Positions 51,452 to 54,728 are shown, counted from the stretch's first letter. The stretch is DNA of 64,000 bases from a virus (IMGVR_UViG_646564533_000005), one strand, 5' to 3'. Translations and numbers: made by a program. The notes: a model not told the origin generated them from the letters alone.

Positions 51452-51868
51452 GTGTCTCAACCACTTTCGGAAATATTGACATGGGATGATAAACAATGGG
51501 AGGTATTTGTCCATGATTGGCTTATTGTCTGTAAATCAGATGATTACCCGTGGAGCGAACGTTTGGGAGGAGCTGGAGATAAAGGTAGAGACGTTGTTGG
51601 ATATAAATCGGATCCTAACGTAGAAGGTTATTCTTGGGATAATTATCAATGCAAACTGTACAAAAAAAGTTTAGGGTTCTCTGATGTTGTAGTTGAGTTT
51701 GGAAAACTTATCTATTTTACTCTGAATGGTGATTATCCCATCCCTCAGAAGTACTTTTTTGTGGCACCCTATGATTTATCTACTACATTTTCTAATTTAT
51801 TGAAAAATAAAAACGAGCTTAAAAAAGCAGTCCTTGATTCATGGGATTCAGCAATTTCAAAAAAATAA
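51452..51868 (+). CDS. Mrr-like PD-(D/E)xK nuclease-domain protein (N-terminal segment of putative effector; GTG start with strong SD)
   Basis: GGAGDKGRDVVGY...YQCKLYKK matches the Mrr catalytic-domain signature (G-x-GD-x-G-x-D ... QCK-x-Y) as recalled; AAGGAG 9 nt upstream; frame ends at an A7 tract. Confidence 0.6.
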   Translation: MSQPLSEILTWDDKQWEVFVHDWLIVCKSDDYPWSERLGGAGDKGRDVVGYKSDPNVEGYSWDNYQCKLYKKSLGFSDVVVEFGKLIYFTLNGDYPIPQKYFFVAPYDLSTTFSNLLKNKNELKKAVLDSWDSAISKK

Positions 51869-52458
51869 CTAAAAAGATTGATATTCCATTAGATGATGAA
51901 ATAAAAAAATATATTGAGGATTTTGATTTTAGTATTTTTTACTCTCTACCCTTATCATTGATTTTAAATGATATTGCAAATACACACCTTTATTTTAAGT
52001 ACTTTAACGAGCTGTATGTCGTGAGAATCCCTCCAAATGAAATTCCAACATACAATTCAAAAAAAGAGTCTGTATATGTTAATGCACTGCTTCAAGCCTA
52101 TTCAGAGCATGGAAATAAAACTTATAGTTCTTTCTTAGAGCTTGATGATCCATACAGACGACACTTTAATAATAGTAGAAATGATTTTTATTTTGCATCT
52201 TCGCTTGAGGTTTTTGTCCGCGAAGTATTTAAAGATGATGTATTCAAAGCATTGAAATGTTACATTTCATCTTCAATTGAACCCGTCTTTTATGAAGACC
52301 ATAATTATGCATTTATTAGGTGTAATGCAGTCTTGAAGCAGGCTGTTCTGACACCAATTGCACATTCAGTACTATCAAAAATATGTGAAGCAAATGATAA
52401 AAAAGGAATATGCCATCATTTGGTTAATGATGGTGAAGTAATTTGGACGGTGAGATAA
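51841..52458 (+). CDS. probable continuation of the nuclease protein in the -1 frame (effector C-terminal domain) or separate gene
   Basis: frame switches at A7 (51859-51865); no SD before its ATG; stop overlaps the next start (TAATG). Confidence 0.45.
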   Translation: MGFSNFKKITKKIDIPLDDEIKKYIEDFDFSIFYSLPLSLILNDIANTHLYFKYFNELYVVRIPPNEIPTYNSKKESVYVNALLQAYSEHGNKTYSSFLELDDPYRRHFNNSRNDFYFASSLEVFVREVFKDDVFKALKCYISSSIEPVFYEDHNYAFIRCNAVLKQAVLTPIAHSVLSKICEANDKKGICHHLVNDGEVIWTVR

Positions 52459-52916
52459 TGGTTAGAATTTATAATTCAAGTTTAGAAGTGGCATGTCGAA
52501 TAGCGAAAGTGCTCGTCGCTATTTATCCTTCTTCATTAAGCCTTGAACGGCTTATTTGTTTTGATTTTATTTTAGTAAATCTTAAGGATTTTTTACCTGA
52601 AGAGATTAGTCTTCATCCTCCAATACCCCGTAGAGATGCTCAGTTAGCCCTAAAACGAGAGATTGTTTTAGAATCATTGGCTTTGTTGCAAGGCTATGAA
52701 CTAGCCTCAAAAATTTATACACATCGTGGTTTTGTATATAAAGCTTCTGAAAAAACATATGCATTTACAAATTCTCTACATAATGAATATGTTGCGCAGA
52801 TGGAGCATAATATAAATTTGGTGGTTAAGTTATATAGTGATATTCCTGATGAGCAGTTGCAATCAATTATAAAAAATAAAATTGGCAAATATGATATGGA
52901 ATTTAATTATGAATGA
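52458..52916 (+). CDS. small middle-component-like protein (152 aa)
   Basis: ATG overlaps the upstream stop (TAATG); size and position between effector and ATPase. Confidence 0.5.
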   Translation: MVRIYNSSLEVACRIAKVLVAIYPSSLSLERLICFDFILVNLKDFLPEEISLHPPIPRRDAQLALKREIVLESLALLQGYELASKIYTHRGFVYKASEKTYAFTNSLHNEYVAQMEHNINLVVKLYSDIPDEQLQSIIKNKIGKYDMEFNYE

Positions 52917-53388
52917 CAATTTTTTTACGTTCAGAAAAATAAAGGTAACCGGATTCAATAAATTAGATGCTATAATTGAATTTGGTTCTAAATTGACTAT
53001 TTTATATGGTGGTTCTGACTCTGGAAAAACATACATATATTATTTGATTCGATATTTATTAGGGAGTGAAAAACTAAAAAATAAAGATATCGATCATGCT
53101 CAAGGTTATGATTTAGCCTATCTGGAATTTAATTTTCAAGGTAGGGTAATGACAATTGAGAGGTCTCTTCAGGATAGCGCCCATTACAGATTATATGATT
53201 CGAGCATTGAAAATGTTAGTGAAGCTAATCTGTTGATGGTTTTTTCCAAAAGTGCTTCGTCTAAAAAGAGTTTTTCATCATACTTTTATGGTAGGTTGAA
53301 TTTCAAAGAGGCTAAAGTAAGAACAAACTTAAGTAATACTCTTCATAAATTTAATCTTAATAATGTTTTTGAATTTTTTTTGTATTGA
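52909..53388 (+). CDS. SMC/ABC-type ATPase, N-terminal head fragment with Walker A
   Basis: FRKIKVTGFNKLDAIIEFGSKLTILYGGSDSGKT: beta-strand plus P-loop GxxxxGKT; ATG overlaps the upstream stop (ATGAATGA); frame ends right after a T8 tract. Confidence 0.6.
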   Translation: MNDNFFTFRKIKVTGFNKLDAIIEFGSKLTILYGGSDSGKTYIYYLIRYLLGSEKLKNKDIDHAQGYDLAYLEFNFQGRVMTIERSLQDSAHYRLYDSSIENVSEANLLMVFSKSASSKKSFSSYFYGRLNFKEAKVRTNLSNTLHKFNLNNVFEFFLY

Positions 53389-53551
53389 TGAATTAAGAAT
53401 GTTAACTGAGAAGTCGTTAATTCTTTCTGATATTCCTAGCGAGGAGACAAAAAGAAAGTCTGAATTTAAATTCCTTTTAACTCAGAGAGATGATACTAAC
53501 TCCTTAGCAGAAAAACCAAATAAAAAAGCAAGATGTTTTTTAAAAAATTAA
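53363..53551 (+). CDS. ORF fragment in +1 frame after the T8 tract (probable continuation of the ATPase)
   Basis: frame switch at 53374-53381; ends at an in-frame TAA at 53549-53551. Confidence 0.3.
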   Translation: MFLNFFCIDELRMLTEKSLILSDIPSEETKRKSEFKFLLTQRDDTNSLAEKPNKKARCFLKN

Positions 53552-53572
53552 ATTGCAAATATTTATGAGGAA

Positions 53573-54094
53573 TTGAAAGCGCAATTAATTTATCCTGAAT
53601 ATGATCAAGTCATTGTTTCAAGAGAACTTGAGAAAGCAGAGCAAGATATTGAATCATCGAAAGATATATTGAAAGGTATTGTTGATGCACTTGATGATAA
53701 GAAGCAATTATTAAAAGAGTTAAGTGATGAATTATATTCAATCAGTGACAGGGAAAAATACTTATCATTACTCATTGAAAGATTTAGTCTTCTTAAAGAC
53801 CAATACTTTATAGATCTACAAAGAATAGATGTTGTATCACAGGCGAATTTCTATTTAAATAATTTTGCAGATATTTATTGTGAGTTCTGTAATACACCGC
53901 AAAAAAAAGAAAATGAAATATCATATGATGATTGTTTTTTGTCGTGTAATGCAGAAAAATTGAAAATCAAAAGCCAGCTGAAAGGATTAATTGAATCAAT
54001 CGGATCTAATGTTCGCGAACATGAATTAATTATGTTAAGAAAAAATGATGTTAATGAAATTTATCAAGCAGAAAAAGTGATTTTAAGACGTTAG
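53573..54094 (+). CDS. coiled-coil segment (probable ATPase arm), same frame as the preceding fragment
   Basis: heptad-rich Lys/Glu sequence; TTG start without SD; same frame as 53363..53551. Confidence 0.4.
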   Translation: MKAQLIYPEYDQVIVSRELEKAEQDIESSKDILKGIVDALDDKKQLLKELSDELYSISDREKYLSLLIERFSLLKDQYFIDLQRIDVVSQANFYLNNFADIYCEFCNTPQKKENEISYDDCFLSCNAEKLKIKSQLKGLIESIGSNVREHELIMLRKNDVNEIYQAEKVILRR

Positions 54095-54161
54095 AAGATA
54101 AAAATATAAAACAATACATTCATCTCTTGAATCACTTTATGAATATAAAGACAATCTTTTA

Positions 54162-54728
54162 ATGGATCACACAAAACATAGCATTCTATCCTCATTACAA
54201 GATAAAGAAGATGATGTTGACGAACTTAAATACTCCGCCGAGGACTTTGACTCCTTAACAGTAGCTGATTTGTATGATATAGAAATAGCGATGCAAGACT
54301 TTTTGAATGATATAAATTTTGAAAATTCTAAAGATAACAAAGTGCGATTTGACGAAGATACATATGACTTTAATATCAATGGGAAACGCCGAGGAATGTT
54401 TGGTAAAGGTACCCGTGCAGTAATGCATGCTATATTTACCATTTGCTTTGCGGAATTTTTATCAAGAAAAGGGAATCCATTCATTGGATTTGTTGTGCTT
54501 GATAGTCCATTAGTGACGCACTTTGATAAAGATAGAGGGGTTTCTCTATCGGATGTTAATAGCGTCAGTCTCAGTGATTCATTTTATCACGCATTAATCA
54601 AAAGGGACTATAATTTCCAGATTGTAATTCTTGAGAATAAAGGTCCGACGTTCCAAATAAAAATTAATGATGCAAATAAAATCCATAACTTAAATAAGAA
54701 TGGAAGCTCTGGTTTTTATCCTGTTTAA
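54162..54728 (+). CDS. ABC ATPase C-terminal head-like fragment (signature-like and Walker B-like motifs)
   Basis: GMFGKGTRAVMHAIF followed by hydrophobic strand FIGFVVLDSP and THFD; no SD before the ATG. Confidence 0.4.
   Translation: MDHTKHSILSSLQDKEDDVDELKYSAEDFDSLTVADLYDIEIAMQDFLNDINFENSKDNKVRFDEDTYDFNINGKRRGMFGKGTRAVMHAIFTICFAEFLSRKGNPFIGFVVLDSPLVTHFDKDRGVSLSDVNSVSLSDSFYHALIKRDYNFQIVILENKGPTFQIKINDANKIHNLNKNGSSGFYPV

Follow-up and report, generated by a model that had tools for sequence, protein, structure and literature searches.

The closest described relatives of the locus analyzed here, positions 51452 to 54728 of a 64,000-nucleotide (nt) viral DNA (IMGVR_UViG_646564533_000005; the window, below, is this whole stretch, with positions counted from its first letter), are the three-gene Lamassu defense systems, in which lmuA, lmuC, and lmuB encode an effector, a middle component, and an SMC-like ATPase. 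Those Lamassu systems that have been tested act by abortive infection and require all three components (bioRxiv 10.1101/2022.05.11.491447). Short Lamassu systems are recognized by an LmuB of about 600 amino acids (aa) with a Walker B motif of the form hhhhD[Q/S/T/E], and Mrr is an accepted class of LmuA effector (PMC12663957). Like the window locus, Lamassu-Mrr of Escherichia coli SE15 (Millman et al. 2022) combines an LmuA bearing an N-terminal restriction-endonuclease-like domain with LmuC and an SMC-like LmuB; in contrast, the window copy appears inactivated, and no other E. coli Lamassu has DNA similarity to it that is detectable by distant blastn. The architecture is also that of the solved type II complexes, DdmABC/LmuABC of Vibrio cholerae (9ny5, 9nyg, and 9uxh) and LmuACB of Salmonella (9hqu and 9hqx), which the locus matches in LmuB fold and family profile, in a two-domain LmuA made of a nuclease and a C-terminal domain (CTD), and in its short-Lamassu Walker motifs. 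The nuclease itself differs, being Cap4-type in the solved complexes and Mrr-like, with a D...D...QxK signature, in the window, and sequence identity is only 8 to 15%. Furthermore, LmuB of the window has one CxxC zinc-hook motif, while V. cholerae LmuB has none (PMC12663957). The ABC-3C systems do not differ from Lamassu in kind, the term being a computational name for the same superfamily, and their Pfam families CTD6 (PF20282) and MC2 (PF20288) match the effector CTD and the middle component here above gathering thresholds. They are reportedly to be credited to Krishnan, Burroughs, and Aravind in 2020.

We consider it very probable that the locus is a short three-gene (type II) Lamassu operon inactivated by mutation and carried as cargo by a divergent P4-like satellite inserted at a tRNA-Thr gene in the O55:H7/O157:H7 lineage of E. 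coli. The locus has already been published under another name. The Domainator paper (Johnson et al., NAR 2024, PMC11754643) examined integrase-to-Psu hotspots from 2718 E. coli genomes, and as described there, the largest cluster (cluster 1) has 259 instances with 3 to 9 coding sequences (CDSs), a Psu 31% identical to P4 Psu, and content "related to Lamassu systems." A representative, "Lamassu-var," was cloned from E. coli O55:H7 TB182A (CP038295, 4,116,517-4,120,474), and the reported phenotype is smaller plaques of T2, T4, T6, and RB69 that are visible only at the highest dilutions; the account of the system given in that paper mentions neither frameshifts nor pseudogenes. The CP038295 interval is allelic to the window locus, lying in the same int-to-psu slot with a TB182A copy that is 99.8% identical over all 3277 nt, and the cloned segment begins at the lmuA GTG and stops where the delta gene ends. 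The window sequence itself is a 100% match to positions 352980-356256 of NC_013941.1 (E. coli O55:H7 str. CB9615), and four of five annotated protein pieces are identical in TB182A and CB9615. What was counted as 3 to 9 CDSs in "Lamassu-var" corresponds here to fragments of a canonical three-gene operon. Family, subtype, and locus are all known, and the original prediction, made from the sequence alone, erred in assigning the locus to no described subtype and in allowing for a divergent or new variant. A 2026 preprint (10.64898/2026.07.23.740414) also notes a common predicted Lamassu-family system in O157:H7 genomes.

The locus is a short three-gene (type II) Lamassu of a described subtype, with an Mrr-type LmuA, the gene order lmuA-lmuC-lmuB, and the Pfam families CTD6 and MC2. 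We base this assignment on an LmuB of ~600 aa, a Walker B motif of the hhhhD[Q/S/T/E] form, and the Mrr-type effector. The operon is broken into seven open reading frame (ORF) pieces, all of which match Lamassu models colinearly in a profile search against PADLOC-DB, and this agreement is far beyond chance. The order of effector, middle component, and ABC ATPase, which had been read as that of Lamassu/ABC-3C systems, is supported alike by PADLOC, Pfam, structure prediction, and intact homologous operons. Profile searches recovered the PADLOC LmuA, LmuB, and LmuC models together with CTD6, MC2, and AAA_23; Mrr_cat did not reach its threshold on the window piece. Every motif quoted in the original prediction is present at its stated position. 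As had also been noticed, the genes are co-oriented, AT-rich, and directly downstream of a P4-type int: GC content is 0.28 to 0.33 over 51500-54500, compared with 0.44 to 0.55 in both flanks.

Intact homologous operons were recovered from three sources, Proteus mirabilis, a Pantoea-type P4-like satellite, and a Yersinia frederiksenii P4-like element, so that the proposed search for such operons in other P4-like satellites was successful. The closest intact orthologue is the P. mirabilis operon (SRR22052128, 6543-9821), which has 89% nucleotide identity to the locus and encodes products of 335, 152, and 606 aa. The Pantoea-type satellite, 99.9% identical to one in Pantoea alhagi, carries an operon for products of 335, 152, and 606 aa at 79% nucleotide identity in the same int-to-delta slot, and the Y. 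frederiksenii operon encodes products of about 336, 157, and 609 aa at about 50% amino acid identity. The P. mirabilis operon lies outside any P4-like satellite, on a different island, with an integrase and smpB nearby and an rve-family (transposase/integrase-type) gene as its neighbor, which indicates that the same Lamassu cargo has moved between unrelated mobile elements and genera. Short lmuA calls in P. alhagi (201 aa) and in one Proteus record (145 aa) were considered as truncations and rejected as gene-caller start-site artifacts; in both, translation of the DNA from a conserved GTG gives an intact 335-aa protein.

Alignment of the window with the intact operons revealed exactly four 1-nt indels and one CAA>TAA substitution, one lesion in lmuA and four in lmuB. 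That the genes would require conceptual repair was implicit in the original prediction, and these five inactivating lesions are what such repair must undo. In lmuA, a -1 deletion at codon 137 creates an A7 run at 51859-65. In lmuB, there are a +1 insertion in a T8 run at codon 156 (53374-81), the CAA>TAA at codon 214 (53549), a -1 deletion in an A-run at codon 388 (54072-76), and a further -1 deletion at codon 397 (54099/54100).

The first piece of lmuA (51452..51868, plus strand, 138 aa) encodes a predicted Mrr-like PD-(D/E)xK nuclease domain and matches the PADLOC LmuA model PDLC03852 at 8e-41 over positions 10-140 of 336. It begins at a GTG at 51452 preceded by the ribosome-binding site (RBS) AAGGAG 7 nt upstream and ends at a premature TAA produced by the deletion in the A7 run (51859-51865). 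The second piece (51859..52458, plus strand), in the -1 frame relative to the first, contains the linker and CTD6 and matches PDLC03852 at 4e-44 over positions 141-333. As a listed ORF it extends from 51841 to 52458 (205 aa; Pfam CTD6 PF20282, 7.7e-30), and this C-terminal half of the effector was absent from the ORFs named in the original prediction. The LmuA layout, an N-terminal effector domain followed by a conserved CTD, is therefore recovered in two pieces that jointly cover positions 10-333 of 336 in the PADLOC model and end in CTD6.

The strong RBS and Mrr-like signature claimed for the ORF at 51452 are both present. Within GGAGDKGRDVVGY...YQCKLYKK, the candidate catalytic residues are D43 (51578-80), D47 (51590-92), and Q66-x-K68 (51647-55), all invariant across 54 full-length homologues and all retained in the window piece. 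Pfam Mrr_cat (PF04471) scored the window nuclease piece at 12.1 bits (E = 0.22), below the gathering cutoff of 21, but 6 of the 54 full-length LmuA homologues do match it (best, 6.3e-6). For Xenorhabdus P0031, an intact homologue 67% identical to LmuA, the AlphaFold2 model is of high confidence (predicted local distance difference test score, 94.6); its restriction-endonuclease core, alpha-beta-beta-beta-alpha-beta, precedes a helical C-terminal domain and has the D...D...QxK residues on strands 2 and 3. The best Protein Data Bank (PDB) fold matches of this model were to the solved LmuA chains 9nxx, 9hqx, and 9ny1, followed by the nuclease domains of Cap4, MspJI, Avs3, and FokI. Neither single-sequence nor profile searches of LmuA against PDB sequences gave a significant match, and the link to the solved LmuA is by fold comparison only. 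Given this family-level and structural evidence, we regard the LmuA nuclease domain as Mrr-like in its modeled fold and conserved residues, despite the subthreshold Pfam score.

Between lmuA and lmuB, as in other Lamassu operons, lies an intact lmuC (52458..52916, plus strand, 152 aa, the length found in intact orthologues), which matches PADLOC LmuC PDLC03871 at 3.2e-36 and Pfam MC2 PF20288 at 2.9e-30. The description of a 152-aa ORF coupled by start/stop overlap on both sides was accurate: TAATG (52456-60) joins it to lmuA and ATGAATGA (52909-16) joins it to lmuB.

The four pieces of lmuB, all on the plus strand, account between them for a Rad50/SMC-like ATPase. Piece 1 (52909..53388) encodes the N-terminal ABC head lobe with Walker A, matches PADLOC LmuB PDLC03863 at 1.6e-36 over positions 3-153 of 610 and Pfam AAA_23 at 2e-7, and stops after the +1 T insertion (T8 at 53374-53381; T7 in other strains). 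Piece 2 (53375..53551; PADLOC LmuB, 4e-9, positions 149-199) ends at the nonsense TAA at 53549-53551, which is CAA in every other copy; the corresponding 62-aa ORF (53363-53551) is another that had gone unlisted in the original prediction. Piece 3 (53552..54094; 1.3e-19, positions 231-386) contains a coiled coil with a CxxC zinc-hook motif at 53879-53890, the cysteines of which (C324/C327) are invariant in the family, and stops after the 1-nt deletion in the A-run at 54072-54076; the ORF at 53573 that had been read as coiled coil falls within it. Piece 4 (54100..54728; 5.9e-37, positions 428-608), listed as ORF 54162-54728, encodes the end of the coiled coil and the C-terminal head lobe with Walker B and is reached only past the second 1-nt deletion at 54099/54100. 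The motifs recognized earlier in the ORFs at 52909 and 54162, Walker A GGSDSGKT (53008-31) and Walker B FVVLDS (54489-506), are both invariant in the LmuB family alignment and have the short-Lamassu forms Gx4GK[S/T] and hhhhD[Q/S/T/E]. Repaired lmuB encodes 606 to 607 aa, as expected of a ~600-aa ATPase with head, coiled coil, and head. An AlphaFold2 model of the intact Proteus LmuB orthologue shows the head-coiled-coil-head fold that the ATPase pieces had been proposed to form, with an antiparallel coiled coil and the CxxC at its apex, and its best fold matches were to solved type II Lamassu LmuB (9uxh and 9hqx), followed by Rad50 and SMC. A single-sequence search of LmuB against PDB returned nothing; the family profile was needed, and it matched 9hqu at 5e-10.

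Of 5426 complete E. coli genomes, 309 carry the locus, with each copy at least 99% identical, and among the matches listed, most carriers are labeled O55:H7 or O157:H7. When blastn was made more sensitive to pick up diverged copies elsewhere in E. coli, it returned only O55/O157 copies, and a search of phage records gave zero matches. None of the 70 matches listed in the E. coli locus searches is annotated as a three-gene operon; RefSeq gives split CDSs throughout. We compared lesions by aligning eight E. coli copies and by checking 90-nt stretches in the 309 matching complete-genome records. Two deletions, that in lmuA and that at 54099 in lmuB, are common to all eight copies; the 90 nt around the former are identical in 309/309 records and those around the latter in 306/309, and the one listed among the three exceptions carries a further 1-nt deletion rather than a repair. 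Among the eight copies, the +T at 53374-81 and the C>T at 53549 occur only in CB9615. A TTA>TAA at 53541 arose independently in O157:H7 strains, a +A was gained at 54039 in DEC5B, one T is missing at 52920 from two O157 strains, and the A-run at 54072-76 varies between A5 and A6 among strains. The TB182A allele has the lmuA frameshift and two lmuB frameshifts and lacks both CB9615-specific lesions (the +T at 53374-81 and CAA>TAA at 53549). Substitutions among the eight copies comprise 2 nonsense, 9 nonsynonymous, and 1 synonymous change. Since two lesions are in all eight copies and the others are lineage specific, the operon was probably inactivated before O55:H7 and O157:H7 diverged and has drifted since, with decay continuing independently in the sublineages.

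Three of the O157:H7 records listed (NZ_CP089270.1, CP089034.1, and CP089032.1) have the locus also split by the IS3-family element IS1203, giving two match pieces over about 4.6 kb, a further independent disruption. Another record, NZ_CP044147.1 ("plasmid pAR-0428-2," linear, 46.9 kb, E. coli O157), holds the satellite together with prophage tail genes and is probably a misassigned chromosomal contig; its copy of the locus has four private 1-nt deletions that resemble sequencing errors.

The consequences of these lesions can be framed by analogy with the solved Cap4-type Lamassu complexes (PMC12663957; bioRxiv 10.1101/2025.03.14.643221). In an intact system, two LmuB and one LmuC would hold a monomeric LmuA via its CTD, and DNA ends or phage replication intermediates, together with ATP, would bring about its release. 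Free LmuA would then tetramerize through the CTD, allowing the Mrr-like PD-(D/E)xK domains to form an active site, and nonspecific DNA cutting would lead to abortive infection. In the window, interruption of lmuA at the linker (codon 137) would part the nuclease domain from the CTD responsible for sequestration and oligomerization, and interruption of lmuB at codons 156, 214, 388, and 397 would leave both ATPase head halves on no single polypeptide. Since the nuclease would be uncoupled from its CTD and no LmuB polypeptide would have both head halves, the canonical circuit is not expected to form. Judged by its sequence, the locus appears to be Lamassu by descent and not a functional member of the family.

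Several observations weigh against inactivation. A weak reduction in plaque size of T2, T4, T6, and RB69 was reported for the three-frameshift TB182A allele (PMC11754643), with residual activity claimed; lmuC has no lesion, and the nuclease piece of lmuA keeps its catalytic residues; the lmuA lesion reads TCA AAA AAA TAA, an A7 run followed by a stop codon, at which low-level -1 slippage is conceivable; and in the least decayed (493/89-type) alleles, the stop and start of the two lmuB ORFs share one base, which can be read as TAATG coupling. Taken together, these could be explained if LmuA and LmuB pieces assembled noncovalently with LmuC, or were rescued by -1 ribosomal or transcriptional slippage, to give weak defense. 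Head halves of Rad50 can, after all, be coexpressed as separate chains. We nevertheless think this explanation unlikely. New nonsense and frameshift mutations have arisen independently in lmuB across sublineages, nonsilent substitutions outnumber silent ones 11:1, as expected without selection, and the window allele has two extra lesions, one in the N-terminal head and one at the start of the coiled coil. In addition, the published construct begins at the lmuA GTG, leaving out native upstream sequence including the RBS; it is stated to carry no promoter, it includes the satellite delta gene, and the effect was seen at the highest dilutions only, with no mutant controls of the construct in the main text (PMC11754643). 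As for slippage, intact orthologues lack an A-run at this site in lmuA, and the slippery A7 run is therefore best seen as a by-product of the deletion. A more specific version, in which the frameshifted state is alive and -1 slippage in lmuA together with TAATG-coupled LmuB halves produces a throttled system behind the TB182A phenotype, strikes us as distinctly improbable, and even less likely for CB9615 because of its two extra lmuB lesions.

Homopolymer lesions might instead form a phase-variation (contingency) switch that turns defense on and off within populations. Several lesions do lie in A or T runs, and lengths vary by strain at 54072-76 (A5/A6), at 53374-81 (T7/T8), and at 52920, where two copies have a 1-nt T deletion. 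However, the runs are short (5 to 8 nt), two of the lesions are nonsense substitutions that slippage could not reverse, all 309 records share the OFF state of the lmuA lesion and 306 of them that of lmuB 54099, with the listed exception being no repair, and zero sampled genomes have the ON configuration. We consider a switch of this kind very improbable. Sequencing or assembly errors masking an operon that is intact in vivo would be the least credible explanation of all, although AT-rich homopolymers are error prone and the AR-0428 record illustrates error-like private deletions, since about 308 complete genomes, each sequenced independently, share the same two lesions, two lesions are stop codons created by base substitution, and RefSeq has split CDSs in every match listed. 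We therefore retain inactivation followed by drift as the preferred reading.

If so, the hotspot cluster with the most instances (259) in the published survey of E. coli P4-like satellites is a clonal array of frameshifted pseudogenes in the O55:H7/O157:H7 lineage rather than a new multigene variant, and automated Lamassu counts that include the locus in O157:H7 overstate the functional defense repertoire of this pathogen. The locus would also be a counterexample to the claim that defense pseudogenes are rare in P4-like satellites (10.64898/2026.02.27.708500). As a defense system it adds nothing new, and its value is modest and corrective; for the Mrr/CTD6/MC2 subtype of Lamassu, the intact P. 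mirabilis and Pantoea orthologues are the right material.

The element that carries the operon has the expected organization of a P4-like satellite, with a tRNA insertion, int, cargo, delta/psu/sid genes, a C4-type RNA region, and alpha. At 50059..50104 (plus strand) is a 46-nt 3' part of tRNA-Thr (T-arm, acceptor, and CCA), 100% identical to annotated tRNA-Thr genes of other E. coli, at which ARAGORN called no complete tRNA; we presume it to be the left attachment site. An exact-match search of 61300-63300 found no right-end attachment-site repeat. The satellite seems to follow a lambdoid prophage in tandem. The P4-type tyrosine integrase (50267..51448, plus strand; Pfam Arm-DNA-bind_3, Phage_int_M, and Phage_integrase; RefSeq WP_001130496.1) precedes the operon, and the cargo slot is bounded on the side far from int by delta (55138-55410; Ogr_Delta, 1e-16), psu (55416-55967; Psu, 4.8e-42), and a sid-like gene (55964-56716; Psu, 7e-10), all on the minus strand. 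These RefSeq and Pfam neighbors, together with intact operons in the same slot of other satellites, uphold the earlier placement of the locus in an int-proximal cargo slot. The identity of the satellite Psu to that of P4 is only 31.3%, which matches the 31% published for cluster 1, and we therefore describe the satellite as divergent. Its P4-like nature is confirmed by a P4/P1-type antisense-RNA immunity region with its targets at 57954-58200 (plus strand; Rfam C4, 84 bits at 58113-58200), in which Rfam also finds isrK (72 bits) and a c4 a1/b1 target element. An alpha-type primase-helicase follows at 58947-61337 (RefSeq annotation). Promoter signals upstream of the operon and inside it did not exceed chance, and a consensus scan placed a terminator-like hairpin with a 13-bp stem 3' of lmuB (54755..54788, plus strand), a pattern match only.

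Directly after the alpha primase-helicase is a second AT-rich region (61470-62426, minus strand; GC content, 0.28 to 0.34) with a 318-aa ORF, the hypothetical protein WP_000205214.1, that has zero Pfam or PADLOC matches and may be an additional cargo gene at the distal end of the element. On the upstream side of the satellite, at about 43100-49636 of the window, the end of the lambdoid prophage carries type III secretion effector genes of the NleG family, EspM2, and the NleB family. Decay is not confined to the Lamassu operon: this cluster includes an EspW pseudogene with a frameshift and an internal stop and, at 48275-49636, a leucine-rich repeat (LRR)-containing "type III secretion system protein" pseudogene with an internal stop.

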